This document shows, piece after piece, positions 16,764 to 53,632 of a stretch of 64,000 nucleotides of DNA. The notes under the pieces are model-generated. The model was given only the letters and a program-made list of their open reading frames with translations, was not told the DNA's origin and did no database searches. A program made the translations under genes and the position numbers. Source of the stretch: Dictyostelium discoideum. Lineage: Eukaryota. The first letter of the stretch is position 1; each line of letters begins with the position of its first letter. Where the stretch lies: positions 3,584,001 through 3,648,000 of the forward strand of contig CM000153.2 of NCBI GenBank assembly GCA_000004695.1. Direction: 5' to 3'.

Positions 16764-18200
16764 TTATTGGCAATAGTATTTAAGTAAAGGTTTATCAAGT
16801 GGTAAAAATTTATAGTCATGGGCTGTCATTAAAAGTTTAAGACTTTCTGGTGCCATATCATGTGTAAATGGATTGATTGTTTCACCTATTACGATATGGT
16901 TGATTGAATTTGGAAAAAGATCTTTGGATAATGGAAATTTATAAACAAGAAGTTCAAAAAACTCTAGTTCACTTGGGATTGATTCTTTAGTAAGTTTTTG
17001 GTCAATATCCTCTATTTTTAAATGACTCAATGATTCAGGATATTTAAATTTTGGATCCAGTTTCACTTTTATTAGAGATAATGAAAATATTGATTTTGGT
17101 AATTGATCATTTCCAATAACTTGAGAAACATTGCAAAGTACCAATTTATGAATACCATCAGTTGGGAAAAAGCTTGAATCAAATGGAAAATCTAAATTTT
17201 TTAAAGTTAACTCTCTGATTGAGCAATTTGATTTTGGCAAGGAAGTTTTATTAAAAATATGAGATTTGATACCATTAACAGTTAAACATCTAACATTACA
17301 AAATATATCTGGAGTAAGTTTATGGTTATAACCTCTTTCAAAATATAAATGTTGAACACTGATAGATGGCATTATATCTTTAGTAACAGCAAAATCTACC
17401 TGGCCAAAAACCATTTCCCGCACTTGTAAACCATATGAAAAGGGTGAAATTTTATGAGAGTATCCATTAAAAAACCTAACCTTTTCACCAAAGAAAATAT
17501 CTGGTACTGGATGGACAATATTACCAATTCCAACCGATCTTTCATAGTTATCAATCATCCAAGCATTCAATTTATGTTTGTACCCCCATCCAATATTTAC
17601 ACGATAATCTGTTGGTAAATCTTTAAATAGTTCTTTTGTAATTGGTTTGGAAATGTTTAGAATATTTATATCATGCTTTAGAGTACAAAATCCAAGTGGT
17701 GGAAACAATTTACTAATAACATTGAATTTGTAACCCTCACAAAAATAAATGCCTTTTGGGGAAATTGGTGGGTAAATTTTAAAAGGAGGTCTTAAACTAT
17801 TTTCATCCAAGGTGAATTTTGTTTTTATTATTAACAAAGAATCCAAATTGTCTATTATACTTTCATTTGTAATTTGATGAGAATAATTACCATCAAACAA
17901 TAAAGTTTTTATTGTGCCTTTTTCTAATAATTCTTTATTCAAAGGATAACCCATATCACCACCAACACCCAATTGATAAACGAAAGGTTGAACTATTTCC
18001 TTTGTAACTTGATTTTTATAGCCATTGAAACCCATAAATTTAATAGTATTTGGTATACTTTCACTGGTTAGTGCATAGGTAATATTAAAAAATATAGCAC
18101 CAATAACTGAACTTGGAATCATTTCTTTTTTAATATAATGTGCATAACCATCCAAAAAATAAATAAATTTAACATTTTTGTGAAAATTTATTTCATTCAA
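16764..18200 (-). CDS. hypothetical protein, 478 aa, with repeated F-x-G-Y-x-H-K / P-x-S-I motifs reminiscent of Dictyostelium FNIP repeats
   Basis: Track ORF. About 20-25-aa repeats with recurring FNGYSHKI, FDGNYSHQI and ERGYNHKL. The frame stays open about 90 nt upstream of the first ATG without another ATG, so an upstream exon is possible. Confidence 0.4.
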   Translation of the reverse strand: MNEINFHKNVKFIYFLDGYAHYIKKEMIPSSVIGAIFFNITYALTSESIPNTIKFMGFNGYKNQVTKEIVQPFVYQLGVGGDMGYPLNKELLEKGTIKTLLFDGNYSHQITNESIIDNLDSLLIIKTKFTLDENSLRPPFKIYPPISPKGIYFCEGYKFNVISKLFPPLGFCTLKHDINILNISKPITKELFKDLPTDYRVNIGWGYKHKLNAWMIDNYERSVGIGNIVHPVPDIFFGEKVRFFNGYSHKISPFSYGLQVREMVFGQVDFAVTKDIMPSISVQHLYFERGYNHKLTPDIFCNVRCLTVNGIKSHIFNKTSLPKSNCSIRELTLKNLDFPFDSSFFPTDGIHKLVLCNVSQVIGNDQLPKSIFSLSLIKVKLDPKFKYPESLSHLKIEDIDQKLTKESIPSELEFFELLVYKFPLSKDLFPNSINHIVIGETINPFTHDMAPESLKLLMTAHDYKFLPLDKPLLKYYCQ

Positions 18201-19408: not shown

Positions 19409-20797
19409 ATGAAATTAATAAATCTTGTAATTTATTTTTTTCTTTTTGGAATAGTATATTCTCAACCACCACAACCACACTATGGTGTATTTGAATTATC
19501 AGCATTACGTGGTGGAGAAAATAAACTTCTGTATAGGGGTGCCAATCTAAAAGCTTTTTCTCAAACACCAGCTAGACCAGGAGTGATTGTTACTTTTTTC
19601 AGATACAATGGAGGTATTGACATTTACTATTCCCATAGGATACAAATTGTTGCAAATCTTGAAGAGTCAGCGCGTGTAATGACCCAAACTCCAAATAATA
19701 TGGCTACTAGTGGTAGAATTGTTTCATATGCTTATCAAGAGATATCTACCCAGGTTTTCAATGGACTAAATGTTGGCAATTTGAATGCTCTAATCAATGG
19801 ACCCAATTTAGTAACACCAGCTGGGCCATTTATTCCACATGGAAGGTTGATTAATGTCCTTGCACTTTTGGCGAGATGGATTAGATTAAATTTTTCAACA
19901 AATATACAAATCATTGAATTCATTGATGATCATCCAAGTTTTCCAAAACCTTCTGAAAGCTATGATAGCAATGGTGGTGGCTCTGGAGTTTCCAATGATT
20001 TAGAACTTGCTTTTTACCAAAAGAATCCAAATGGTAACTATTATCTTGAGGAAAGAAAACATATTAATGAAGAATCTGACAATCCTGCAGGATTATTGGG
20101 ATTAGTTAGTGAAGGTATTAAAGAGGCTGCCAACGGTGTTAAAGTCACTGGTGTAAATATTTGGAATAAAGCCAAAAGTATTTTCAGCCATGGTAAAGAA
20201 GCTGCCAGTAGTAAAACAAGTGCTGCCGTTGTAAAAGTTGAAAATGAAGGTAAAGCAGTTGTCAAAGCTGGTGAATCCGTTGTAAGTACTGTGAAAAATG
20301 ATGGTAAGGCAGTTGTCAATGCTGGCGAATCTGTTGTAACCTCTGTGAAAAATGAAGGTAAGGCAGTTGTCAATGCTGGTGAATCCGTTGTAACCTCTGT
20401 AAAAAATAATGGTAAGGCAGTTGTCAATGCTGGTGAATCCGTTGTAACCTCTGTGAAAAATGAAGGTAAGGCAGTTGTCAATGCTGGTGGATCTGTTGTA
20501 ACCTCTGTAAAAAATAATGGTAAGGCAGTTGTCAATGCTGGTGAAACTGTTGTTCAAACTGTGAAAAAAGAAGCCTCAGTCATTGTGAAAACTGGTGAAA
20601 CTGTTATTGATTCCACAAGAAAAGGAGGCGCTGCATTTGTTTCTGAAGGTGGTGCTGCAATTGCTGATATTGAAAAAAATGGTGCACAATTTGCAAGAGG
20701 TGTTGTAGAAATGGGTGAAGCAGCTGGTGATGTTGTTGAAGAAATGGCTGAAGTCTCAGCTGGTAGGTTAATAGTTGAAGTTCTTGAAATTGTATAA
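19409..20797 (+). CDS. secreted protein, 462 aa: signal peptide, an unknown N-terminal domain of about 200 aa, then seven 18-aa tandem repeats (KAVVNAGESVVTSVKNEG) and an acidic tail
   Basis: Track ORF with a genuine ATG. The hydrophobic N-terminus MKLINLVIYFFLFGIVYSQ looks like a signal peptide. The 54-nt DNA repeats are nearly identical. Confidence 0.65.
   Translation: MKLINLVIYFFLFGIVYSQPPQPHYGVFELSALRGGENKLLYRGANLKAFSQTPARPGVIVTFFRYNGGIDIYYSHRIQIVANLEESARVMTQTPNNMATSGRIVSYAYQEISTQVFNGLNVGNLNALINGPNLVTPAGPFIPHGRLINVLALLARWIRLNFSTNIQIIEFIDDHPSFPKPSESYDSNGGGSGVSNDLELAFYQKNPNGNYYLEERKHINEESDNPAGLLGLVSEGIKEAANGVKVTGVNIWNKAKSIFSHGKEAASSKTSAAVVKVENEGKAVVKAGESVVSTVKNDGKAVVNAGESVVTSVKNEGKAVVNAGESVVTSVKNNGKAVVNAGESVVTSVKNEGKAVVNAGGSVVTSVKNNGKAVVNAGETVVQTVKKEASVIVKTGETVIDSTRKGGAAFVSEGGAAIADIEKNGAQFARGVVEMGEAAGDVVEEMAEVSAGRLIVEVLEIV
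20252..20565 (+). repeat. tandem 54-nt coding repeats (about 6 units, several more than 95% identical) within the secreted-protein gene
   Basis: The unit ggtaaggcagttgtcaatgctggtgaatccgttgtaacctctgtgaaaaatgaa is repeated head to tail. The antisense track ORFs 20041..20557 are artefacts of this repeat. Confidence 0.85.
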
Positions 20798-21126
20798 ATT
20801 TTTATTTATAAAAAAAAAAAAAAAAAAAAAAAAAAGTGTAAATAATAAAACTATATAAAAATTAAAAACCATTTTTTATAATTATAGTTTGATTTAATTA
20901 AATCAACTTGGTGGTTTAAGTATATTATAAAAATAGAAAAATTAAAATTATTTTTTTTTTTTTCCAAATCTTTTCATTTTCATTTTTTTTTTTTTTCATT
21001 TTTTTTTTTTTTTTTTTTTTTTTCAATTTTTATTTTATAATTAATTTCACCCACCAAACACTTCAACATATAATTATATATATATATAATATTTATTTAT
21101 AATTGTATATATATATAATAATAATA

Positions 21127-22231
21127 ATGATTAAATCAAGTGATCCATTAATTCCACCATTTAGATTTGCAATAGTTGAAGAAGGGTTATTAAGGGGATC
21201 ATATCCAACAGATAGAAATTTTCGATTTTTAAAGAGACTAAAGTTAAAGACGATTGTATCATTAACACCAAAGCCACCAACTAAATCATTTTATACATTT
21301 TGTGAAAGATATAATACCACCACGAAACATTTTACAGTTAGCAAATTTAAAGATGATGTGACATTATCAGCAGCACAAGTAGCACAATTATTGGAAATGA
21401 TGATCGAACCTAACAATTTACCAATGTATATTCATTGTTTAGATGGTGCAAATGTAACAGGTACAATATTTATGTGTTTAAGAAAACTTCAAAACTGGAA
21501 TCTTTCATCAATATTTCAAGAATTCACAAGATTCACTAGAGGTGGTACAATCGCATCTTCGGAGGCTGAATTTGTTGAAACTTTCAAGGCTGAAATCGAT
21601 GTTTGTCCACATATTCCACCTTGGTTATGGCAAGGTATTAGAATGGTTAAACATCCAACTTTAAAATTAAGATTAGTAGGTGGTGATCAACAACCTGCAC
21701 TTTTAGCTTTAAATAATAATTCCTCCTCTTCAACAACAAATCCCAATGCAACATCTACTATAACTAATCCTTCATCAATAAGTACATCATCTTTGCCAAG
21801 TTCTTCAACGAATACCCCAAATAGATCAACTGTTGATGATACTGGTAATTTATTACAAAAACTAATAGAATTAAATTTAAATAATCAAAATAGTAATGAA
21901 AGTGGTATGCAGCTTGAAAATAACGATGATAATAATAATAGTGATAATAATAATTATAATAATAATAGTAATAATAATAATAGTAATAATAATAATAGTA
22001 ATAATAATAGTGATACAATCGATTATAAAAATTTAAATAAACCATTAAAAATTAGTTCAGAAGAAAGCGAAAAAGAAAAGAATACAAATGAGTCATTCTC
22101 TTCAACAATATATACGGTATCATCAACTACAATAATTAATAATAACGATAATAATAAAAATATTGATAATAATGATGGTAATAATAGTAATGATAATGAT
22201 AATGATAATAGTAATAATAATAATAATAATG

Positions 22232-22324
<93 letters not shown>

Positions 22325-22965
22325 GTATCAATAATAATGATAGCAACGAACCAAATGATAATAATAATAATAATAACAATAATAATAATAACGATAATAA
22401 TAACGATAATAATAGTAACACAACACCTTTAATTTCATCAATAACCTCAACAAGTATTTTGAACGTCTCATCTACAACTGTACAACCAATATCACAACCA
22501 CAACCAATATCACAACCACCACAAACACAACCAATATCACAACCACAACCACAACCCCAACCCCAACCACAACAATCAAGTACGCCAAATATATCAAGTA
22601 TTTTAACACAAAGTCCAAAAGTAACATCATCACCTTTAAATTCAAGTATTATATTACCAAGTGGCAGTGGTAGTGGTGGTAGTAGTAGTAGTGGAAGTAG
22701 TATTAGTAAAGATAAAAAGAAAAAAGATGATATTAAACTTCAATTTGATTCTGGTAAATTTTTAACACAAAAGGAATCTAGATCCATTGAAGCCTTATCA
22801 CTTGAAAGAACTGTAAAAAATGTAACACCATCCAACTCCAATACTTCCACAACAACAACAACTACCACTACAACAACTACTACTTTTACTTCACAATCAC
22901 AAAATCAATCACCAAAAAATTCACACAGAGCAATCTCTTCATCACAAAATCCAAATTTAAATTAA
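21127..22965 (+). CDS. Tyr_phosphatase_2 (Oca/Siw14, plant-and-fungi atypical DSP) family protein, probably catalytically inactive, with a long polyN/S/T/PQ low-complexity C-terminal half, about 612 aa
   Basis: FAIVEEGLLRGSYPTDRNFRFLKRLKLKTIVSL and IHCLDGANVTGTIFMCLRKLQNWNLSSIFQEFTRF match the family consensus (IHCKRGKHRTG...LRKLQ.W.L.SIF.EY.RF). The CX5R arginine is replaced, giving C-LDGANV-T-G. The start is taken at ATG 21127, in frame with track ORF 21103. Confidence 0.6.
22234..22323 (+). repeat. (AAT)n coding microsatellite (polyN) within the phosphatase-like gene
   Basis: 30 consecutive aat units. Track ORFs 22023..22421 (minus) and 22163..22432 (plus) are artefacts of the repeat. Confidence 0.9.
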
Positions 22966-23267
22966 AAAAAAAAAAAAATAAAATAAAATAAAATAATAAA
23001 AAAAAAATAAAAATAATAGTAAAAGAAAAGAGAGTAATAATAGTAATTAATATCTATAGATATTTTTCTTTTTCTTTTTTTTTTTTTATCTGATTTAATT
23101 TCTTTGAATTTTATATTTTTTTAATTAATTTTTGTGTGGTTTTTGAAAAGATATTTTTTTTTTTTTTTATTTTTTTTTTTATTTTTTTTTTTTTCCAATT
23201 TTCAACCATAAAAAAACAGTGTGCCCCTTTCTCAATAAACACACAAACACATAAAAATAAAAATAAA

Positions 23268-24449
23268 ATGGATATTGATAATGAAAAATCAAATAAAACT
23301 TATAAATTATATAAACAAGTATTTAATAATAAATTTTTATCAAATTCAATTTATAGAAATGTTTATAAATTTAATCAACAAATTACAGATTGTTATTCAC
23401 ATGGAAGATCATTGTTTAAATATTGTGTAAACTATCAAGAAGCAACACTTGATTGGATAATTTCAAATAAAAAATATTCATTATTATTTGATAAAATTAA
23501 ATCAAATCATTGTTTTAATAAAACTGAATTATCATTTGACCATTTAATAATAGTGATTAAACAAATAATGAATCTTGAAAATGATTGTAGTGCTAATAAT
23601 AATAATAATAATAATAATAGTGGTGAAAATGATAAAGAAAATAAAGAAACTAATTTAGAATTATTAAAACAATTTTTTAAAATTAATTCAAATAATTTAT
23701 TTAATATTAAATTAAATCATCCAAATTTAACATATTATAGAGATATTAATTTAATAGAATTTGCAATACATACACAATGTATTGAATTTTTAAAATTAGT
23801 TTATTATTATTCAAAAGATAATAAAATAATTTTTAAAAATAATGGTGGTGATAATGATGATGATGATTATTTAGATTTATCATTAAAAATTGGAAATTTA
23901 GAAATAATTAAATTTATTCATAAAGAAATGGGGATAACATGTTTTAAGGATAAATTAAAGGCATTACATTTTTCATTAATGTCTGAAAATAGAAATAAAG
24001 TAGTTGAATATCTATTAGATGAAATTAAATATCAACCACCAACACTTTATTCAGGTATTTTTGATAAATTCTTTGAAAACCTAATTCAACTTGAATTTAA
24101 ATTATTTAAAAGATTATATCAACTTGGTTCACCAATTTTATATCATAGTTATGCTATACCATATCTAATCAATGAAAAATTCAATGATACTTTAAATGAT
24201 TCAAAAATTAATTTTAAAAATAAATTACTTGATTTCATTCAATGTTCAATTTTCGTTTGTAGTTTAGGTTATTTTAATGATAAATTTAATAAAAATATTG
24301 ATTATAATTCATTATTATTAAAAATTGAAAAAATATTAAATTCAAATAATTTAGAAACTACATCATCTTCTTCATCATCATCATCCAGTACTATATTTTC
24401 AAAATTTAAAAATATATTTATTGATTCAACAAATAATAATAATAATAAA

Positions 24450-24480
<31 letters not shown>

Positions 24481-25916
24481 AAATTGATTATTTTATTGAA
24501 AAAGAAATAAAAAGAATATTTATTTTTGAATTTTTAGTACCATTAGATTTTATAAAAAGGGATGTACTTTGTATGAAGGTTATTGATTTTGCAAGAGAAT
24601 ATGGTGAATATAATTTGTTAACAAGTTCATTAGATAAATTTAAAAATCAAACTTCAATAGTTGATATATGTACTTCAATTTTAAAGATTGCAAATTTTAA
24701 TTCTGATTCAAAATTAATAAATTTTCTTGAAAATAATTATTTCAATCATAAAGAATTAGTATCATTTTTAAAAATTAATGACAAAGTTGATGAAGATACA
24801 TCATTAGTTTATTATATAAGTAATATTAATAATTATTATAATTTTGATAATAATAATAATAATAATACAAACATTAATAATAATAATAATAATAAATTTG
24901 AAAATTTATTTGATACAAAAAAAATTAAAATTCAAGATCAAATTCAATATTTATCAATAATTTTAAAAAATTCAATAAATTCTTTAATACCAAATAGAGT
25001 ATTATTACAACATATTTTATTAAATAATGAAATTGGAATTGTTTTTGAAAATATTGAACAAATAATGAATGTAATAAGTGGATATAATTCAAAAATATGG
25101 AATGAATTTTCAGAAATTTCAAAAAAGAATTTAAAGAGTGATAATTTTGAAATAGTAACCCCACCACTTGATAGGCTATTTAGTGCAGTTTTATTTGTTG
25201 GGAATAAAGAATTGTTTAAATTCATTTTTAGGAAATATAAAGATTATTTTAAATGGGATTCTCAAATTATTGGTATAAAAGTAGTAAGAAGTAATGATTT
25301 AGATTTCATTCAATTCCTATTTGATAATGATATTGGTAATTTAAAATTTTCAATTAATTTTTGTACAAATAGGGTATCGATTAAATATATGACTGAAACA
25401 TTGGGTCTATATTTTAGTGAGGATTTATTGGTTTCAATTTGTGAGAATCAAAATATTAATAATTGGAATTCAAATTATATTTTCAATTATATTTTAAATT
25501 TTAAAATTAATAATTTAAATCATTATCAATATGTCGTTATTCCTCAAACTATGAAAAATTATAAATATTGTAAATCAATTGAAATTAATATATGCAATGG
25601 TAGTTTATTATCAGAGAGAGTTAAAATAATTAATAATTCTACTCATTTCAATAGAGATACTATGGAAAAATGGTTTTTTGAAAATACTAGAAATATTGCA
25701 AAAATTATTGCACTTGGTAATTATTATCATTTAGTTGATTTACTCAATGAAATTGAACAATATTCAAACTCTTTTGTAGGTTGTAACCCAAAGTATATTT
25801 TTAAAAGATCTTATAATATTGCTCATGTAGGAATTGAATATAACCCAAAAATAAAAAATATTATAAAATCAATTTTAGAATCTTTAAATCAAATTTCTAA
25901 CATTCAATCCTGGTAA
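23268..25916 (+). CDS. large lineage-specific protein, paralogue X1, about 882 aa
   Basis: ATG 23268 is in frame with track ORF 23136..25916. The N-terminus MDIDNEKSNKTYKLYKQVFNNKFLSNSIYRNVYKFN and the blocks CVNYQEATLDWIISNKKYSLLFDKIKSN and LDLSLKIGNLEIIKFIHKEMGI...ALHFSLMSENRNKVVEYLLDEIKY are about 50% identical to the gene at 35487..38099. Confidence 0.6.
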
Positions 25917-27770: not shown

Positions 27771-30073
27771 ATGGTTATTAATATTTAAAATTTTAAATTT
27801 TAACAGAGGTTGATAATAAAGAAGTTATGGATTTTTCAATTAAAAGATTTTATGGTCAATATCAAACATTGAGAAACTTTTTTTTAAATGCAAGTGCAAT
27901 TACAAGTGTATCTAGTGTTATTGCAGTACCAAATTTACCACCAGATCCTCCAAAGTTTATTAGAAAAGTTAGAGAGGCACCAAAGGCCAAACCACAGGCA
28001 ATTCCACCACCAGTTGTAAAGGAACCACCAACACCACCACCTGAACAAATTCCAGTTCCAGTACCAACACCTGTATTCATTCGTCAAACGGTACCAGTGG
28101 TTTATGGCGCACCTTATGGTATGCAACAACAACAACAAGATAATAGTATGTGGGGTCAGTTTGGTTCCAATCAACCATTTGATCCAAATTTACAATTACA
28201 ACAACAACAAGCTGCATTATTACAACAACAACAGCTACAACAACAACAACTTTTACAACAACAACAGCTACAGCAACAGCTACAACAACAACAATTATTA
28301 CAACAACAACAAGCTGCTGCTTTGGCTGCCGCTCAGCAACAACAGCAACAACAGCAATCACCACCTCAAATTTCACCTCAATCATCAGCTCAATGGGTAA
28401 CATTTGGTGATGATGCACCAACAAGACAACGTTCAACTAGTACACCACCAGCTTTGGAAAAGAAAGAAGCATCAGTTGATAAACCAGCTTCACCACCAAA
28501 ATCAACAACAGCCAGTTCCAATACTGATAGTCAAGGAAAAACTAGAGTTATCACTAAAATCATTACAAAGACTGTCAACAATACACAAGAGATCAATGCT
28601 CTCAAAGCAAGAATTGAGGAATTGGAAAGATTACTTCAAGAGGAACAAGATAAAAATAAAGCACTCACATTGAAATTATCGGAACGTGAAGCTATGATTC
28701 AAGAGGTAACATCAGCAAGAAAGAGATTACAAGATATGAGTTCAACCAATGATAATTACACTGCCGAAGTGGTTAAACAAAATGAACAATTACGTGAACA
28801 ACTCATTGCCATCAGAGATTGGACTGAACGTACAAGACTTCAAAGATTAGAGAAAGAGTTTGGTTTGGCTGCTGGTTCAATTCAACAATATCTCTCACAA
28901 TTGGATAATCCAAACAATATGGGTAATCAAGAGGCAACTCATCAATTGGTTATCGAGGATTTGGTTAATCATTTACAACAAGCTCAACGTTTATCCGATC
29001 TTTGTAATCAAGAGGGTGATGATTTAGAAATGGATATTTTCTCTGCGGTCAATACAGTTTCAAACTCTTTGAAGAGTTTATTCTTTGATGCCAAGGGTTC
29101 ATCAAGATTAATTTTAGATCCAGAGTCACAAAGTAAATTTATGGATGCCGCAAGAAAAATTGGTGCTCTCACTCAAAATCTTTTCGAATCAATTCGACTC
29201 CAAGGTGGTCAATGTAATGATGATGAAGATCGTAAGAGATTGGCAAACAATTTTGCTTCCCTTAAAACTGGTATCAATAATTTGGATGCATTGGCTCAAC
29301 AAGCTGACGCTGAAAGAATTGAAGCCGAGAAGAAATATTTAGAGAATGGTTTTGATTTGGATGATGTTGCTGAACGTGAACTATTGGCTGCCGCTAAAAC
29401 CATTGAAGATGCTGCAAACTCATTATTGGCCGCAAAATCAAAGAGAGCTCCAAAGAAGGAGGGTGATTCACCAGATGTTGCTGAGGCAATCCTTGAGGCT
29501 GCTATGGCAATCACTGGTGCTACTTCCACATTGGTTGGTGCCGCCACTTTAGCACAAAGAGAACGTGTCGAAAAGGGTAGAACAAGTGATGGTGGTCCAC
29601 TCTATAGAAAGGATCCAACTTGGGCTGAAGGTTTAATCTCTGCTGCAAAATCTGTTGCCCAAGCCACTAAAGCTTTGGTAGATAATGCCAACAAGACAGC
29701 ATCTGGTCAAGAGATCCCAGGTGGTACAGAAGAAGCTCTCATTGCAACTTCGATGGCTGTAACTGCTGCAACTTCTCAATTGGTCTCTGCTTGTAAATCT
29801 AAATCTGATATCAATAGTCCTTCTCAACATAAACTTTCAAATGCTGCCAAATCCGTATCCAATGCAACCAATCTTTTAGTGGCTGCAGCCAAAGCTGTCG
29901 CTGCTAAAGTCGCCTCTGAAGAGGATATCGATTTCGATAAACTCACTGTCACTGGTTATAAAGTTAAAGAAATGGAACAACAAATGGCAATTCTCAGATT
30001 AGAAAAAGAATTAGAAGTCGCTAGAAAAGGTTTAAGTGTTATTAGAAAGAAACAATATGACGAAAATCAATAA
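26989..30073 (+). CDS. hipA: huntingtin-interacting protein 1-related / Sla2 homologue (ANTH domain, coiled coil, C-terminal I/LWEQ talin-like actin-binding module), about 961 aa; exons 26989..27064, 27182..27726, 27809..30073
   Basis: The ANTH-like N-terminus MTEFEAIVHKATNSKITAPKRKHV..IVLECYNENSARTFYMELYRRPLDTSDVVCWKSLITIHKVVQEGP parallels Sla2/HIP1R ([24 protein letters not shown]..). The I/LWEQ-type C-terminus includes KVKEMEQQMAILRLEKELEVARKGLSVIRKKQY. Donors are T|GTAAAT and AAT|GTATTT; acceptors are aaaaatag and acagag. 76+545+2265 = 2886 nt = 962 codons. There is a Q-rich tract at 28130-28370. Confidence 0.8.
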
Positions 30074-31363: not shown

Positions 31364-35240
<3,877 letters not shown>

Positions 35241-35486
35241 GAAAATAAATAAAAATAAAATAAAAATAAAAATTGATTATTCAAATAAAGAAATTAATCA
35301 CCAAATAAAATATTTTCACATTCTACCAATAATTATTCTACGAATAGGTGTTTGGTGTCGCCAAGATATTTTTTTTTTTTTTTTTTTATAATTTTTTTTT
35401 TTTTTTTGATGAAAAAAACCATCAATTTTTTTTTTTTTTTTTTTATTTATTTTTTTATTTTTACTAATTATTTTATTTTAACCAAA

Positions 35487-38099
35487 ATGGAAAACAATAA
35501 TTATAAACTTTATAAATCAGTTTTTGGTAATAAATATTTATCAAATGTAATATTTAAAAATGTTTATAAATTAAATGATCAATATTATGGTCAAAAAGAA
35601 TCATTCACAAGATGTGTAAATTATGAACAAGCATCACTTGAATGGATTTTAAAAAATCAAAAATATGAATTACTTTATGATAAAATTAAATCAAATTATA
35701 AGTTTAGTGAAAATGATGAAGGATTTTCTTTTGTATGGATAAAAAAATTGGTTCAATTATTAACAAGTGAAACTGAAAAAGAAAATAACAATTTTATATT
35801 ATTACAAAAATTTTATAAAAATAATTTAGATACTTTAAAAAAGGTTAAATTATTTCATAGCTCAACAAATTTTATCTGTATTGGTTTATTGGAATTTTCA
35901 ATTTACACTCAAAGTATTGATTTCTTAAAATTAGTTTATCTAGATTATCAAAATGATAATAAAACTAAATCAACTGAAAATGATAATATTTATAAATTTT
36001 TGGATTTATCATTGAAATTTGGGAATTTAGATATTATAAAATTTGTACATAGGGAAATGGGTATTGGTTTAAATGATAGAATTATGGCATTACATTTTTC
36101 AATGTTATCTGAAAATAGAACAGCTGTGGTATACTATTTACTAGATGAAATTAAATTTAAACTACCAACAGAAAAAAAATATCAAAATGAAATTTTATTT
36201 GATAAATTCTTTTTAAATATTATGAAATTAGAATTTGATTTATTTAAACGTCTTTATGAATTAGGTTCACCATTATTCTTTAATAAAATTTATTTAAAAA
36301 GTTTATCATGTTATTTCAATAATACATTCGACATAATTGAAGAAAATAAGAAAACATTTATTCAATTCTTAAATTTCTTTCAAAATTGTATTTTCTTATC
36401 AGCTATTTTATCAAAATCAAAATCAACCATAAAAAGAAATAGTTTATTATTAAAAAAAATAAAACATTTAATAAATTATAATAATAATAATAACAATAAT
36501 AATGAAAATGATAATAATAATAATAACAATAATAATAATAATGAAAATATAATTTATAATTTAGAACAAGATGAATATATAACTATTAAAGAAAATGAAG
36601 ATGAAAAAGCAAATGAGAAGGAAATTGAAAAAAAAGATTTATTTAAAAATGGAAATTGGTTTTCAAATTTTTTAAAATCAAAATCAAAGTCAACAACAAC
36701 AACAACAAGTACTTTTGGAAAATCAGATAAATTAATGGTTAATCCATCATCTAACTATGATAAATTTACAGAAATAAATTATAATAATTTTAATTTTGAA
36801 AGAGAGATTAAAAGAATTTATTTATTTGATTATTTAAAAGTAGAAAATGAAATTTTCATGACAAAAGATAGCTATATGTTGATGGCTCTAGAATTTAAAA
36901 GAAAATACCAAGAAAGTGAAGTTTTCAATGATGCTTCATTTTTAAATTCAACTGGTTTTTATGAATCATTATTTGTGGTATCAGTTCTTTATGCAGATTA
37001 TAAACTATTGGAATTTGATTCATTTGATATTCTTCAAAGAGATAGTCATCTTGAAAAATTAAAATCCTCCTTTAATACTTTCTTTTATAGGAAAAGAAGG
37101 TCAGATTTCCAAGCTTTCTTTTTAGTTTCAAAAGATATAGAGAAACAAATTGAATACATTGATTTTCTTTGCAAGTTAAATATATGTAAAATAGATTCAC
37201 TTTCAGAATTTGTTAGAGAAATAATTTTATCAAAATATTTTATAATACCACAACATGCAGATCTATTGGCAAATTTATTTAAAAAATATTTTTTTAATTC
37301 TAAGAAATCAAATGCTTTAGTTTTTGTTTATAATAGAGAACTATTCAAATATTTTTATAAAAACTATGTAGGACTTTTTGATTGGACATCAGAAATTATT
37401 GCAAATTTATTTGTTAAAAATGATGATATTGAACTCATTGAATTTTTACATGTCAATGGAATTAGTGATTTAAATTTAGCAATTGATTTTTCTCAAACTT
37501 TAAAGATGGCTGATTTTATGATTAAATTAGGTTATAATTTTTCAAAAAAATCTTTGGAAACTATTTCAAATATAGATAATAGTGACGAAACATTTTCATT
37601 ATTCCAATTAGCATTTAAATCATTACAAATGACTTTTTCTAAAGAGAATGATTATGTTGATGCTGAAGCTGATGCTGATGGTGAACCAGTCAATAGTGTT
37701 CAAAAGACTCAAAACTTAATACCAATTTATTTGGTTAGTAAAAATTATAGATGTTTAAAATTCTTGGAGGATAAGGTATTATTGGGTATTTTACATCCTT
37801 CAAAGGTTAATATTCTTTATTCATCACCAAAGAAAATAAATGTATTGACAATGGAAAAATTACTACCCTTTTTCAATCAATTGTATGTTATTAATAATGT
37901 TTTAGATACTTTTAACTATGATATTATTGATTCTTTCTTAAACGAATATAAAAGTAATGATGATAATAAAAATCAAAGTAAATATAAATTAGAAATCGAG
38001 AAATTAACTTTTGTAAAAATAATGAAACTTCATAAATCATCCAAAATTAGATCTCTCATTGAAGAAAATATAAATAATAATTGTTTATCTGTAAAATAA
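35487..38099 (+). CDS. large lineage-specific protein, paralogue X2, about 870 aa
   Basis: ATG 35487 is in frame with track ORF 35352..38099. The N-terminus MENNNYKLYKSVFGNKYLSNVIFKNVYKLN is colinear with X1 at 23268..25916 (see that feature). Confidence 0.6.
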   Translation: MENNNYKLYKSVFGNKYLSNVIFKNVYKLNDQYYGQKESFTRCVNYEQASLEWILKNQKYELLYDKIKSNYKFSENDEGFSFVWIKKLVQLLTSETEKENNNFILLQKFYKNNLDTLKKVKLFHSSTNFICIGLLEFSIYTQSIDFLKLVYLDYQNDNKTKSTENDNIYKFLDLSLKFGNLDIIKFVHREMGIGLNDRIMALHFSMLSENRTAVVYYLLDEIKFKLPTEKKYQNEILFDKFFLNIMKLEFDLFKRLYELGSPLFFNKIYLKSLSCYFNNTFDIIEENKKTFIQFLNFFQNCIFLSAILSKSKSTIKRNSLLLKKIKHLINYNNNNNNNNENDNNNNNNNNNNENIIYNLEQDEYITIKENEDEKANEKEIEKKDLFKNGNWFSNFLKSKSKSTTTTTSTFGKSDKLMVNPSSNYDKFTEINYNNFNFEREIKRIYLFDYLKVENEIFMTKDSYMLMALEFKRKYQESEVFNDASFLNSTGFYESLFVVSVLYADYKLLEFDSFDILQRDSHLEKLKSSFNTFFYRKRRSDFQAFFLVSKDIEKQIEYIDFLCKLNICKIDSLSEFVREIILSKYFIIPQHADLLANLFKKYFFNSKKSNALVFVYNRELFKYFYKNYVGLFDWTSEIIANLFVKNDDIELIEFLHVNGISDLNLAIDFSQTLKMADFMIKLGYNFSKKSLETISNIDNSDETFSLFQLAFKSLQMTFSKENDYVDAEADADGEPVNSVQKTQNLIPIYLVSKNYRCLKFLEDKVLLGILHPSKVNILYSSPKKINVLTMEKLLPFFNQLYVINNVLDTFNYDIIDSFLNEYKSNDDNKNQSKYKLEIEKLTFVKIMKLHKSSKIRSLIEENINNNCLSVK

Positions 38100-49397: not shown

Positions 49398-51701
49398 TTA
49401 ATACATAATTTGATTCTTTTTAATAAATTTTAAAAGTGAGACATTGTTTGAATTCTCCTCGAAATTAATATTTTTGTCAAATGGTAACAATAAATCTTGA
49501 GTAAAGAATAAAAACATATCGATACTACCTGTGTTTATAATAAATTTATACATCTGAGATAATTGCAAATTAGAGGATATAATTGAAGGTTCATTTTTTG
49601 AAGAATCGGTTTCACTAATATTGAATACCCAAGGATAATTTTGTTTTAAATATTTGAATATATGTAATTTACCAGAACAAATTACATTTGTAAATAGTTG
49701 ACTTAAATAGAATTGTTTTTCAACATTTTGAGATTTATCTTTGAAATAATTTGACATTAAATATTCTAATTGATCTACATCATTTAAAACTCTATTCAAA
49801 ATAAAAGAGATTGAAACCGATTCAATTGGCGCACCAATTGGAAGTGCTTCTTGAATTGATTGGTTAAATGTTGAAAATCTCATTCTTTGTTGATTGGTTA
49901 AAATGAATTTCTTCAATTGTGGATCATTGGATTTTTCTACCATTGAGTTATGGTTCATTACAAATTCCAATAAAACATTTTCATCTTCAATTCCCATAGT
50001 TTTATCCCAATGGTTAACATCGATCTTGACTAATGGAGTTTCATTAATTAAGTATTTCAAATCATCAATTCCATAAAGGTCCATGATTCCCCATTGTTTA
50101 TAATTATTGAAAAAACATGATTGAAATTCGGTATAGTTTGAATATAAATATTTAAAACCTTTTAATGTAGTTGTATGATGATAATAATTCATTGGTTTCA
50201 TCTTTTCAATTGTTTGTGAGCCAAATTGATATTCTAAGAATTCTCCATAATAAGTTTCATCATCATTTGTTTTAAATACTAAATGTTTAAAGCATTCATC
50301 ATACAATTCTCTATGATTTGATTTAAAATTTTCAAGTAATTCAATTCTTCCAGTTTTTACCAATCTTTTGATAATATTATGTAAAGGTGTTGTTTTCTTT
50401 AAATATTCAATATCGATGAATTGTAAAATGTATTCAAATATTTCATTTGATTTTACATAATCAATAAAATCGATTGGAATTTGATTTTTACCATTTACAA
50501 ATAATCCTTGATGAACCATTTTAAGATAATCTAAATTATCATAATCGACCATTAAATTGAAAAATGTATCTGGTGATAATGTTTTTCTAAGTTTAATTTC
50601 ATTTGATTTTTTAGATAATTCATCAACTGATAAAGTGGTTAAATTACTTGATGGTTGATTTAATTTTTCAATTAATAAATTAATAAATGAAATTTGTCTA
50701 TCTTTATCAGATTTAATAAAATTAAAAATTTGATTATTTGGTTTTCTATTTTTAACAAGATTAAAATCTAATACACCAAATTCCAATGGATCAATATCTA
50801 AATTTACATGTTCAGATTCTAATTTGATTTTTGAATATTTATATTGATAAGAGGTAAAATTCTCACTATATCCATATTGACCTGAAAATGGTAAAATCAT
50901 TCTAATTAAATTTTCAACTCTTTCATCATTTATACTAAAAGAACCAACCAATTGTTTTAATTCCTGATCGGTAAAGTTCATTTCACTCAACTCTTCTTTT
51001 GATAATAATTTAAATGGTTTCTCTAATGATGTTAAATAATTATAATATTTTAAAAGTGAAACAACATCAAAGTTTAACTCTTGTTTATCTTCAATGGTTT
51101 TATTTGTACCATTTGATAAATCATTCATAAAGTTTATGAAACCATTCAATTGATTTGAAAATTCAACAATTTTACAACAAGTTGTAAATAATGTTGATAA
51201 TGAAATTTTAAATAAATTTCTATGACTGATTAATATTGGTACAATTGAAATTGAATTTAAATCAGTTGTGATGATTTTACTTGCTTTACCATCTTCGTTA
51301 AAGAATTTAACTAAATCAGTGGTAATTGATTTATGATTTTCATTTAAATAATCTGAAATTTTGAATTTTGAATTTTTAATTGAATCAATTAAATAGCTTG
51401 GTGTTGGTTGATAATTAAATTCATTAATTAAAACTTTTAATGCAATTACATTTTCAAATGTTAAAATTTTATTTTCAGCTGTTGAATCTTTGGAAAATAA
51501 AAAATCGTTTGGATAGTTTTTAAATAAATTCTTATAGAATTCATAATCAAACTCGTCTCTTTGATTAAAAATTGAATATATATTTTGAGTTTCTTTAAAA
51601 AATAAATAATCACCATTATTAACTTTATTTTTTAATAATTCAATCTCTCCATTTTTAATCATTGACTCTACTGAAAAGTTTTGGTTGATATTTTTTGTCA
51701 T
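49398..51701 (-). CDS. large lineage-specific hypothetical protein, 767 aa, single exon
   Basis: Track ORF with a genuine ATG. Sequence complexity is moderate and N/K/F-rich. No domain recognised. It may be distantly related to X1/X2 but I could not confirm this by eye. Confidence 0.5.
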   Translation of the reverse strand: MTKNINQNFSVESMIKNGEIELLKNKVNNGDYLFFKETQNIYSIFNQRDEFDYEFYKNLFKNYPNDFLFSKDSTAENKILTFENVIALKVLINEFNYQPTPSYLIDSIKNSKFKISDYLNENHKSITTDLVKFFNEDGKASKIITTDLNSISIVPILISHRNLFKISLSTLFTTCCKIVEFSNQLNGFINFMNDLSNGTNKTIEDKQELNFDVVSLLKYYNYLTSLEKPFKLLSKEELSEMNFTDQELKQLVGSFSINDERVENLIRMILPFSGQYGYSENFTSYQYKYSKIKLESEHVNLDIDPLEFGVLDFNLVKNRKPNNQIFNFIKSDKDRQISFINLLIEKLNQPSSNLTTLSVDELSKKSNEIKLRKTLSPDTFFNLMVDYDNLDYLKMVHQGLFVNGKNQIPIDFIDYVKSNEIFEYILQFIDIEYLKKTTPLHNIIKRLVKTGRIELLENFKSNHRELYDECFKHLVFKTNDDETYYGEFLEYQFGSQTIEKMKPMNYYHHTTTLKGFKYLYSNYTEFQSCFFNNYKQWGIMDLYGIDDLKYLINETPLVKIDVNHWDKTMGIEDENVLLEFVMNHNSMVEKSNDPQLKKFILTNQQRMRFSTFNQSIQEALPIGAPIESVSISFILNRVLNDVDQLEYLMSNYFKDKSQNVEKQFYLSQLFTNVICSGKLHIFKYLKQNYPWVFNISETDSSKNEPSIISSNLQLSQMYKFIINTGSIDMFLFFTQDLLLPFDKNINFEENSNNVSLLKFIKKNQIMY

Positions 51702-52501: not shown

Positions 52502-53632
52502 ATGAGCACAAATACAACAACAACAAATGCAACACCAGAATTAGCAAAAGAATCAGTATTTTTTCAATCAAATCATGAAGATTTAAAGAATAGACCAAAA
52601 GTTAGAGGTTATGATTTTAATGAAGGAGTTGATTTTAGTAAATTATTTGAAACATATAAGACGATTGGTTATCAAGCATCAGCAGTTGGAGAAGCAATAG
52701 ATGAAATTAATAGAATGATTTCATGGCGTTTAGTTGATGAACCATTAAAAGAAGGTGAAGATGATGACGAAGAAAGAAAAGTAACCAGATGTAAAATCTT
52801 TTTAGGATATACAAGTAATTTAGTATCTTCAGGTGTTAGAGAGATCATTAGATATTTGGTACAACATTCAATGGTTGATGTTATTGTTTCAACAGCAGGT
52901 GGTGTTGAAGAGGATTTCATTAAATGTTTAGCACCAACCTATATGGGTGAATTCCATTTAGAGGGTGAAAAACTTCGTAGAAAAGGGTTGAATAGAATTG
53001 GTAATCTTTTAGTTCCAAATGATAACTATTGCAAATTTGAAGATTGGATTATGCCAATTTTAGACCAAATGGTTGAAGAACAAAAAACCAAAGGTACCGT
53101 TTGGACACCATCTCGTGTTATCAATAGATTGGGTAAAGAAATCAATCATGAAGATTCAATTTATTATTGGGCTTGGAAGAATGATATCCCAGTTTACAGT
53201 CCAGCTCTTACCGATGGTAGCATTGGTGATATGATGTATTTCCATAGTTACAATACTCCAGGTTTAGTATTAGATATCATTAGTGATATTCGTGCAATCA
53301 ATAATCATGCTGTCTATAGTAAAAAAAGTGGTATGATCATTTTAGGTGGTGGTGTAATTAAACATCATATCTGTAATGCTAATCTCTTTAGAAATGGTGC
53401 TGACTATTCCGTTTTTGTAAACACTGGTAATGAATTTGATGGTAGTGACAGTGGTGCTCGTCCTGATGAAGCCGTCTCTTGGGGTAAAATTAAATTAGAT
53501 GCTAAACCAGTAAAAGTTTACTCTGAAGCTTCAATTGTTTTCCCAATTTTAGTTGCTGAAACTTTTGCTAAAACTTTTAAAAAGAAATCACCAGAAGAAT
53601 TAAAATTAAATAAAAGATCAATTTTTGATTAA
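52502..53632 (+). CDS. dhps: deoxyhypusine synthase, 376 aa, single exon
   Basis: Colinear with the deoxyhypusine synthase family: [62 protein letters not shown] and [13 protein letters not shown]. Confidence 0.9.

Follow-up and report, generated by a model that had tools for sequence, protein, structure and literature searches.

In Cys-based protein tyrosine phosphatases (PTPs), the Arg of the CX5R motif binds the phosphoryl oxygens and stabilizes the transition state, so that kcat falls by orders of magnitude when it is mutated. In STYX, the Cys is replaced instead (by Gly) while the Arg is kept, and phospho-ligands are bound. Siw14 and AtPFA-DSP1, relatives of the protein reported here, are active inositol 5-pyrophosphate phosphatases (6byf, 7mok, and 1xri). 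Dictyostelium presumably has an active Siw14-type paralog of its own, the DG1060 protein. The related OCA proteins, whose original phylogeny is reportedly that of Roma-Mateo et al. (2011), include yeast Oca1, Oca2, and Oca4, which are of the same family, are also predicted to be inactive, and have deletion phenotypes in common with siw14. Their lesions differ. Oca1 reads CCGMGRHR (His lost, Arg kept), Oca2 reads HSNKGKHR (Cys lost, Arg kept), and the motif is deleted in Oca4; among the OCA types, only OCA6 loses the Arg while keeping the His-Cys pair. S. cerevisiae Oca6 (P-loop HCTNGELI) already figures in reviews, along with the OCA clade, as a predicted pseudophosphatase with a genetic link to SIW14, HCxxGxHR being given as the signature of active PFA-DSPs; in the papers covered, ScOca1 is the only OCA protein reported inactive. 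Deletions of siw14 and of the oca genes share sensitivity to caffeine and rapamycin, the caffeine sensitivity of oca1, oca2, oca4, and oca6 deletions is suppressed when SIW14 is overexpressed, and los1Δ is synthetic sick with deletion of each of the same four genes. The concept of STYX-type animal pseudophosphatases, in which a PTP fold has one catalytic residue substituted and acts by binding, has been proposed in a review for the OCA proteins.

Within the window, a stretch of 64,000 nucleotides of Dictyostelium discoideum DNA, positions 21127..22965 of the + strand hold a complete, single-exon coding sequence for an OCA6-type protein of 612 residues, as read from the sequence and the open reading frame listing. 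The frame is open from 21103, the start ATG lies at 21127, and a TAA stop occupies 22963-22965. The choice of start agrees with the N-termini of orthologs, that of D. firmibasis beginning MIRSSDPLIPP. The exact protein is absent from the protein collection searched, where the nearest entry is that of D. firmibasis, which is 98% identical in the domain; this ortholog, KAK5580566, is also encoded by a single exon and is collinear with the 612-residue protein over its full length. A decaying pseudogene or a mis-called reading frame, to which we give virtually no credence, might be suggested by the absence of the Arg and by the abundance of low-complexity sequence, and by nothing more. The 612 codons run uninterrupted in a genome of 78% A+T, and all indels relative to D. 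firmibasis are in frame. The domain shows a dN/dS of 0.02 at a dS of 0.42 in the same comparison, which together with conserved synteny rules out a pseudogene or artefact. Strong purifying selection acts on the gene.

The first-pass annotation had placed the N-terminal part of the protein in the Oca/Siw14 (PFA-DSP) family, and profile and structure searches bear this out. The Pfam model PF03162 (Y_phosphatase2) matches residues 8-169 (21148..21633, + strand) over profile positions 1-162 of 165, scoring 148 bits where the gathering threshold is 27 (E=2.4e-43). A phmmer search of the PDB returns AtPFA-DSP1 (7mok, E=8e-25) and Siw14 (6byf, E=5e-21). An AF2 model of residues 1-208 (mean pLDDT 93.1, pTM 0.86) predicts the PTP/DSP α/β fold, the P-loop having the central strand on one side and helix α4 on the other, and the model of a 69%-identical ortholog (P0002) matches 7mom, 6byf, and 1xri at about 33% identity (probability 1.00, target TM of 0.8-0.89, rmsd of about 2.0-2.2 Å). 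Besides the fold, the protein has in common with Siw14 and AtPFA-DSP1 the His-Cys and Thr-Gly pairs, the LRKLQxW helix, Arg23 of the FRS/LRG motif, Glu132, and P164/W166. The last two residues belong to a domain extension, IPPWLWQGIRMVKHPTLKL (residues 163-181; 21613..21669, + strand), recognized from conservation in the MAFFT alignment and from the AF2 model, where it appears as two strands with pLDDT of 96-98. While P164 and W166 are common to the OCA6 and Siw14 clades, the LW..G....KHPTLK part of the extension is OCA6-specific, corresponding to a gap in the Siw14 clade. Residues 166-181 of the Dictyostelium protein, WLWQGIRMVKHPTLKL, carry this clade-specific part. Its conservation within the OCA6 clade is 87% for L167, 79% for both W168 and G170, 72% for H176, and 73% for P177.

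Assignment to OCA6 itself comes from a comparison of clade models. An HMM built from 187 OCA6-clade sequences, from which the dictyostelids and close amoebozoans had been removed, scores the protein at 282.0 bits, versus 101.5 bits with the Siw14-clade HMM. For a held-out OCA6 protein from Yarrowia, the corresponding scores are 137.6 and 50.2 bits. Homologs are named OCA6 in their source records, and the KEGG-style name of the orthogroup is 'tyrosine-protein phosphatase OCA6'. From these names, from the published ScOca6 P-loop, and from the Yarrowia protein as a proxy, the gene is assigned by sequence as the Dictyostelium ortholog of OCA6 (YDR067C in S. cerevisiae). OCA6 and the Siw14/PFA-DSP inositol-pyrophosphate phosphatases are ancient paralogs, and the OCA6 clade is distributed over Amoebozoa, fungi, oomycetes, Histomonas, and Acrasis. 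The members share a pattern in which His-Cys is kept, Asp or Asn stands at C+2, and a hydrophobic or neutral residue takes the place of the Arg, as in ScOca6 (HCTNGELI), Yarrowia (HCLNGSEV), and Dictyostelium (HCLDGANV), all of them predicted pseudophosphatases. The Dictyostelium P-loop corresponds to the ancestral consensus, while the Saccharomycotina sequences are divergent. We also scanned ten long homologs for domain fusions that might serve as a functional clue, and dropped this line, since only isolated cases occur (one PHD finger and one response-regulator receiver) and these are probably merged gene models.

The P-loop itself, HCLDGANVTG (residues 103-112; 21433..21462, + strand), matches HCKRGKHRTG of AtPFA-DSP1 and Siw14 position for position, with no gap, in both phmmer and MAFFT. 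His103, Cys104, Thr111, and Gly112 are present, so that the His-Cys and Thr-Gly scaffold is retained, while codon 110 (gta, 21454-21456) places Val110 at the position of the CX5R Arg. The complete HCxxGxHR signature is absent, Val110 standing for Arg156 and Asn109 for His155 of AtPFA-DSP1. The original reading of a retained Cys and a missing Arg is thus correct, and correct gap placement restores no Arg: re-gapping is ruled out by the two ungapped alignments and by the IHC...TG...LRKLQ.W blocks, which flank the site collinearly. The nearest arginines are Arg119, in the LRKLQ shared by both clades, and Arg135/Arg138. The remaining substitutions, judged against the substrate-contact residues of the AtPFA-DSP1 crystal complexes and in its numbering, are K151→L, R152→D, K154→A, H155→N, R156→V, and R188→G/A, the query equivalents of the basic P-loop residues 151, 152, and 154 being Leu105, Asp106, and Ala108; D191 is not conserved. 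The Lys186 column is possibly filled by Arg138, a point on which phmmer and MAFFT disagree, and holds Arg or Lys in about 64% of the OCA6 clade. The GNKEPF loop, which is the WPD-loop equivalent (G118-N119-K120-E121-P122-F123) and is 99-100% conserved in the active clade, is also lost, the query reading KFKDD-. In all, the protein lacks the Siw14-clade Arg156, Lys/Asn151, Arg152, Lys154, His155, Arg188, Asp191, Pro185, and the GNKEPF loop, and the Siw14-type residues lost are 85-100% conserved in 115 active-clade sequences.

None of this is peculiar to Dictyostelium. The CX5R Arg occurs in 0 of 227 OCA6-clade P-loops, and the sequence fits the general OCA6 pattern HC-[LR]-[DN]-G-x-x-[VINT]-T-G. 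HCLDGANVTG is the modal P-loop of the clade, 44 of 221 members being identical over HCLDGANVT. By contrast with the Arg, the Cys is found in 221 of 227 members (97%), the His in 221 of 224, and the Thr/Gly in about 90%; Asp occupies C+2 in 204 of 221 P-loops. The clade-specific residues comprise this Asp106 (93%), Arg13 (95%; Asn in 97% of the Siw14 clade), Cys59 (88%), and Glu146 (86%). Net charge of the P-loop averages -0.83, or about -1, in the OCA6 clade versus +3.0 in the Siw14 clade. Loss of the Arg is a fixed signature of an ancient orthogroup and not a local degeneration, and the replacement of the other basic P-loop residues and the loss of the Arg188/Asp191 pair and the GNKEPF loop are likewise fixed throughout the clade. 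No stretch of the domain is better conserved than the P-loop (3.3 bits versus a mean of 2.35 bits), so the pocket looks re-purposed and not decayed. We infer loss of catalysis in OCA6 proteins from the motif, and the label of probable pseudophosphatase, proposed earlier for this gene, coincides with the literature prediction for the clade based on ScOca6.

The first reading treated the whole of the C-terminal 400 residues as low-complexity sequence, a description that fits residues 191-522 but passes over a conserved segment beyond them. The linker formed by residues 191-522 (21697..22692, + strand) is 35% Asn and 18% Ser. TRF detects (AAT)n arrays at 21929-22009 and 22131-22418, and an ACAACC array, coding for Pro/Gln, at 22482-22573. 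Against D. firmibasis the linker shows 135 indel positions and a dN/dS of 0.49; with other dictyostelids most positions do not align, and those that do are 20-29% identical; the median linker in non-dictyostelid homologs is about 94 residues. The linker is fast-evolving and hypervariable, and is derived from trinucleotide and hexanucleotide repeat arrays. Residues 523-568 (22693..22830, + strand) are, in contrast, 57-96% identical to dictyostelid orthologs, with a dN/dS of 0.07. This segment contains a basic cluster, KDKKKK (22708-22725), the sequence IKLQFDSGKF, and SRSIEALSLE (residues 551-560; 22777-22806), which is the local copy of a clade-wide motif, Φ-S-R-x-L-x-A-L-x-L-E-G (Φ, hydrophobic). 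Its core, [LIVM]xA[LIVM]x[LIVM], is found in 132 of 177 OCA6-clade tails, versus 15.5±3.7 in shuffled tails and in 0 of 120 Siw14-clade proteins; Ser precedes at -3 in 105 of 118 copies and Ala stands at +2 in all 118. The Yarrowia OCA6 tail has no clear copy. Both this motif and the LW..G....KHPTLK extension, which are absent in the active Siw14 clade, are features defined in this analysis, without literature precedent. It would be a helix-type docking motif. Intramolecular docking was considered and set aside, as AF2 leaves the motif at pLDDT of 52-62 with no confident contact to the domain. The protein closes with a Thr/Ser/Asn-rich end (residues 569-612; 22831..22962, + strand; 32% Thr, 23% Ser) containing ACN repeat arrays at 22843-22884 and conserved only with the closest species. 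In comparison with yeast Oca6, only the Dictyostelium protein carries the ~330-residue repeat-derived linker and the Thr/Ser tail.

How such a protein might act can be framed by what its pocket has lost. Without the CX5R Arg and with an acidic P-loop, it would not bind or hydrolyze inositol pyrophosphates or other phosphate esters in the canonical manner; because this canonical chemistry would be excluded, an OCA6 protein is better pictured as a regulator or adaptor, not a phosphatase, that would share the stress/TOR/PP-InsP pathway with the active enzyme. Two conserved surfaces would do the work, the re-modelled Cys-containing pocket and the C-terminal helix-type docking motif, while the ~330-residue Asn/Ser/Pro-Gln stretch would serve as a flexible spacer that arose, as is typical in Dictyostelium, through expansion of repeats and has no sequence-specific role. 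We consider it probable, if by no great measure, that the Dictyostelium OCA6 ortholog is a regulator or adaptor in the PP-InsP pathway that works through this pocket and motif. Such a role would match yeast genetics, with its shared oca and siw14 phenotypes and the suppression of oca deletions by SIW14 overexpression. A purely dead scaffold, on the other hand, would not obviously need a Cys conserved at 97% and a P-loop that is the most constrained part of the domain, which counts against the regulator or adaptor role. Physical interactions are known among Oca1, Oca2, and Oca4, whereas yeast Oca6 has no recorded interaction with other yeast OCA proteins, which weakens a model of Oca6 as a subunit of the OCA complex. 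The substrate trap of the first-pass proposal, in which the domain would still bind and sequester inositol pyrophosphates or phosphoproteins in its old pocket, we judge very improbable. The fold and the P-loop backbone, with its amide anion hole, are intact and basic Arg138 may persist at the Lys186-equivalent column, but none is left of the five basic or His P-loop side chains with which AtPFA-DSP1 contacts 5-InsP7, Arg188 is missing too, Asp has become fixed at C+2, and the loop carries a net charge of -1. STYX-type traps moreover keep the Arg and lose the Cys; with this pattern inverted and the pocket acidic, binding of phospho-ligands is not expected.

The conservation of the P-loop might also mean that OCA6 proteins are still enzymes, with a low-pKa Cys104 (His103 and Thr111 being kept) acting on a non-polyanionic substrate or helped by a compensating basic residue elsewhere, for which clade-specific Arg13, Arg135, or Arg138 in the α5-α6 loop are candidates. 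The high conservation of the Cys, His, and Thr/Gly, the Arg or Lys frequent at the Lys186-equivalent column, and the clade-specific Arg13, Asp106, Cys59, and Glu146, whose conservation is not that of random drift, all point in this direction. General PTP enzymology nevertheless attaches the heavy cost in kcat noted above to loss of the Arg, and we know of no alternative substrate, so that residual enzymatic activity seems unlikely. Less likely again is a redox sensor, in which the reactive Cys is oxidized under oxidative stress and switches the interactions of the protein. It would link to the oxidant-induced cell-cycle-arrest phenotype for which the OCA genes are named, and the OCA/SIW14 genes are required in the oxidative stress response. 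The protein still has the Cys, together with the His and Thr that lower its pKa, Cys59 offers a second, clade-specific Cys, PFA-DSPs are inhibited by oxidation, and Cys150 of AtPFA-DSP1 is able to form a disulfide with a second Cys. That partner, however, is Cys92, with which Cys59 does not align, the Dictyostelium protein having Thr47 there. A broader suggestion, about as doubtful as residual catalysis, is that OCA6 proteins are a class dating from the last eukaryotic common ancestor, in which a PTP pocket has been adapted to a non-phosphate ligand, other Cys chemistry, or redox sensing, and is coupled to a universally conserved docking or export-type motif at the C-terminus that recruits a partner. 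This suggestion draws on the reactive His-Cys that is kept, the Asp fixed at C+2, and the inverted charge. The C-terminal motif fits the class 1a NES spacing Φx3Φx2ΦxΦ.

The observation of an Arg-less P-loop, while correct, is ordinary. The Arg-less OCA6 P-loop and the pseudophosphatase label are known already from yeast, and the OCA clade is known to include protists; the main finding matters little in itself. More is to be gained from the comparative detail. No part of the protein is better conserved than the supposedly dead active site, where 97% of members, drawn from five major eukaryotic lineages, keep the nucleophile, and amoebae, oomycetes, and fungi also have a short C-terminal motif in common. 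Because Dictyostelium combines very high PP-InsP levels with easy genetics, it is a good system in which to study OCA6 function, and C104S, D106R/V110R, and deletion of the motif would provide handles on the role of OCA6 in inositol-pyrophosphate/TOR stress signaling.

The first-pass annotation placed the 612-aa product of the ORF at 21127-22965 in the Oca/Siw14 family, an assignment borne out by a strong Pfam match to Y_phosphatase2 (PF03162; aa 8-169, E=2.4e-43; score 148 bits, cut-off 27). The top sequence matches of solved structure are AtPFA-DSP1 (7mok/1xri, E ~1e-24) and yeast Siw14 (6byf, E=5e-21), with no OCA-clade structure among the PDB sequence matches of the query. An AlphaFold2 model of aa 1-208 has a mean pLDDT of 93.1, rising to 98-99 around the P-loop, and for an ortholog with 69% identity the model overlays 7mom, 6byf and 1xri at target TM scores of 0.8-0.89 and an rmsd of about 2.0-2.2 Å. 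Homologs were collected in two ways, by a word-indexed search with 107 hits and by searching exhaustively with HMMER (2433 hits at E<=1e-3; 233 at E<=1e-30). Taken together, the two yield a single coherent group whose named members are labelled OCA6, and which spans Amoebozoa (Dictyostelium, Acanthamoeba), fungi (Rhizophagus, chytrids, Mucoromycota, Zoopagomycota, Yarrowia), oomycetes, Histomonas and Acrasis. When scored against an HMM of 187 OCA6-clade members, from which dictyostelids and other close relatives had been removed, the query reached 282 bits, versus 101.5 bits for an HMM of 113 Siw14-clade sequences. A held-out Yarrowia OCA6 behaves likewise (138 versus 50 bits), and AtPFA-DSP1 and Siw14 show the reverse preference. 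We are therefore highly confident that the window protein is an OCA6 ortholog. Two homologs carry additional domains: the dictyostelid ortholog P0110 (672 aa) has a response-regulator receiver domain at its C-terminal end, and in an unrelated homolog, P0140 (764 aa), PHD fingers precede the OCA6 domain. Each combination was seen once, and probably reflects a merged gene model, not a true fusion.

Sequence alignments with AtPFA-DSP1 and Siw14 pair the P-loop of the window protein, HCLDGANVTG (aa 103-112), with HCKRGKHRTG and show no gap in the vicinity, and the same register recurs in a MAFFT alignment of 318 family members. As a result, Val110 (gta, nt 21454-21456) occupies the CX5R arginine position, and rescue of an arginine by re-gapping is ruled out; the earlier reading of a retained Cys and a missing Arg thus stands. 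The loss is fixed, with Arg found at this position in 0 of 227 readable OCA6-clade P-loops. Among the 221 with a standard H-[CS]-x-x-G frame, the residue is Val in 141, Asn in 35, Ile in 21 and Thr in 14, others being rare, and C+2 is Asp in 204. The modal clade sequence, HCLDGANVT, is identical to that of the window protein.

The remainder of the basic pocket has also been lost. In crystal complexes of AtPFA-DSP1, Lys151, Arg152, Lys154, His155, Arg156 and Lys186 contact 5-InsP7 and the metaphosphate-like intermediate, Arg188 and Asp191 support His155, and Gly118, Asn119 and Lys120 of the WPD-equivalent loop also contact the ligand. These positions are 85-100% conserved among 115 sequences of the active (Siw14/PFA-DSP) clade. 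In the OCA6 clade, by AtPFA-DSP1 numbering, 151 is Leu, 152 Asp, 154 Ala/Ser/Gly, 155 Asn/His, 156 (the CX5R Arg) Val/Asn/Ile, 186 Arg/Lys/Gln (basic in about 64%) and 188 Gly/Asn/Ser; 191 is not conserved, and the GNKEPF loop is lost. The net charge (Lys/Arg minus Asp/Glu) of the six residues past the Cys is -0.83 in the OCA6 clade versus +3.0 in the active clade. The clade has conserved residues of its own, including Arg13 (95%; Asn in 97% of active enzymes at the same position), Gly24, Tyr26, Ser45, Cys59 (88%), Asp106 (93%) and Glu146 (86%), together with an LW..G....KHPTLK extension modelled by AlphaFold2 as two confident strands.

The gene lies on the + strand as a single ORF (open from 21103 to 22965, with TAA at 22963-22965) in a window of about 20% G+C with long Asn-coding repeats, and its start ATG at 21127 agrees with the N-termini of orthologs. 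Its product is most closely related to proteins of Dictyostelium, with 98% identity over the N-terminal 197 aa to KAK5580566 of D. firmibasis and about 91% to D. purpureum. The D. firmibasis ortholog, annotated as a single exon, can be aligned from first to last residue with all indels in frame, and gene order is shared with D. firmibasis chromosome CM069766.1 (FNIP-repeat gene, repeat ORF, OCA6-type gene, ~900-aa ORF, Sla2/Hip1R-like gene). Between these two species, dN/dS is 0.02 for the domain (aa 1-190; dS 0.42), 0.49 for the linker (aa 191-522; 135 indel positions) and 0.07 for a C-terminal segment (aa 523-568). The gene is clearly functional and under purifying selection, and a pseudogene is excluded.

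Among the neighbours, the gene for an FNIP-repeat protein (16764-18200, - strand; Pfam FNIP, E=3e-8), of a family expanded in Dictyostelium, is syntenic in D. firmibasis. A 462-aa ORF immediately upstream (19409-20797, +) has a signal-peptide-like N-terminus and no Pfam match, and at 20241-20553 it repeats a 54-nt (18-aa) unit, GKAVVNAGESVVTSVKNE, 5.8 times in tandem with 90% identity; since its syntenic D. firmibasis counterpart has only 382 aa, copy number probably varies. The ORF directly downstream (23262-25916, +) has a 972-aa syntenic counterpart in D. firmibasis and, like the other long Asn-rich ORFs at 35352-38099, 49398-51701 and 31596-32846, no Pfam match at E<=1e-3. The ORF at 27827-30073 (+), with 35-45% G+C versus about 20% around it, encodes two domains, I/LWEQ (E=7e-48) and Talin_IBS2B, along with a long polyGln/Leu tract; because the syntenic D. 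firmibasis gene carries an ANTH domain as well, this ORF represents the final exon of a Sla2/Hip1R-like gene. Deoxyhypusine synthase is encoded by an apparently intact single ORF at 52502-53632 (+; Pfam DS, E=7e-125).

The C-terminal two thirds of the window protein are of low complexity. The description of this tail in the first-pass annotation fits the linker, which is 35% Asn and 18% Ser and is encoded by AAT arrays (21929-22009 and 22131-22418) and an ACAACC array (22482-22573), but not the conserved segment beyond it. In more distant dictyostelid orthologs, identity is 77-86% in the domain, 57-71% in aa 523-568 (53% over 38 alignable positions in P0110) and 20-29% in the linker, where no more than a minority of positions is alignable and to which this last figure applies. 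Change in the linker proceeds through gain and loss of repeats. One linker island, TSSLPSSSTNTPNRSTVDDTGNLLQKLIELNLNN (21790-21900, aa ~222-258), is near-identical in D. firmibasis. This short stretch could be a second functional element, or the resemblance could simply reflect recent common ancestry.

Set apart from the domain by this hypervariable linker, the sequence K-D-K-K-K-K..IKLQFDSGKF....ESRS[IL]EALSLER lies near the C-terminus and is common to all four of the dictyostelid orthologs recovered (D. firmibasis and three more distant). Tails across the OCA6 clade close with a motif of consensus Φ-S-R-x-L-x-A-L-x-L-E-G-Φ (Φ, hydrophobic). Its core, [LIVM]xA[LIVM]x[LIVM], is carried by 132 of 177 OCA6-clade proteins with at least 30 aa past the domain, versus 15.5±3.7 in shuffled tails, and in 0 of 120 Siw14-clade proteins; Ser at -3 occurs in 105 of 118 and Ala at +2 in all 118. 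The motif usually lies about 9 residues before the C-terminus, and the linker ahead of it has a median length of about 94 aa; the motif of the window protein, SRSIEALSLE (aa 551-560, nt 22777-22806, +), is 366 residues into the tail. AlphaFold2 places a short helix here, undocked on the domain (pLDDT 52-62). The hydrophobic spacing fits that of a class 1a nuclear export signal (Φx3Φx2ΦxΦ). Such a signal does not require the invariant Ser, Ala, Glu and Gly, and at the first Φ position the dictyostelid copies carry Glu or Gln.

A 2026 review treats the OCA clade, found in fungi and protists and missing from animals and land plants, as the sister of the PFA-DSP clade, with a common fold and active-site substitutions (ScOca6 HCTNGELI, ScOca1 CCGMGRHR, ScOca2 HSNKGKHR, ScOca4 without the motif). 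According to the same review, recombinant ScOca1 is inactive, sensitivity to caffeine and rapamycin is common to SIW14 and OCA1/2/4/6 deletions, and oca deletions are suppressed by SIW14 overexpression. A genetic-interaction study found oca1, oca2, oca4 and oca6 deletions each synthetic sick with los1Δ, and evidence that OCA proteins, "except for Oca6", interact physically. We found no published study in which an OCA6 protein had been assayed for activity.

Judging by PTP enzymology and the structures of AtPFA-DSP1, the window protein would neither process inositol pyrophosphates nor bind them tightly via the canonical pocket, and yeast genetics would place it in the same pathway as an active Siw14-type enzyme, where its role would most simply be that of a regulator or adaptor. 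We hold this combined statement with moderate confidence, and a non-catalytic regulatory mechanism as such a shade less firmly. The strongest rival is that the conserved Cys pocket still performs chemistry or sensing on a ligand that is not phosphate-rich. The P-loop Cys is kept in 221 of 227 clade members, His-Cys-Thr-Gly is retained, and, over ten-residue windows, conservation within the domain peaks at the P-loop and next helix (3.3-3.4 bits versus a mean of 2.35); even so, we regard this rival as doubtful, and its redox-switch version as distinctly improbable. As for substrate trapping, one option suggested in the first-pass annotation, a phospho-ligand trap is very unlikely with the basic pocket residues lost across the clade.

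An OCA6 P-loop lacking the arginine has already been published, together with its interpretation, given the reported ScOca6 motif and the classing of Oca1, Oca2, Oca4 and Oca6 as pseudophosphatases in a fungal pseudophosphatome survey. The feature is an ordinary, known property of an ancient orthogroup, whose Dictyostelium member carries a species-typical low-complexity insertion. Two details, of which we found no earlier mention in the literature consulted (the original 2011 phylogeny not among it), may be new: a "dead" P-loop that is extremely conserved and inverted in charge, and the clade-wide C-terminal motif.
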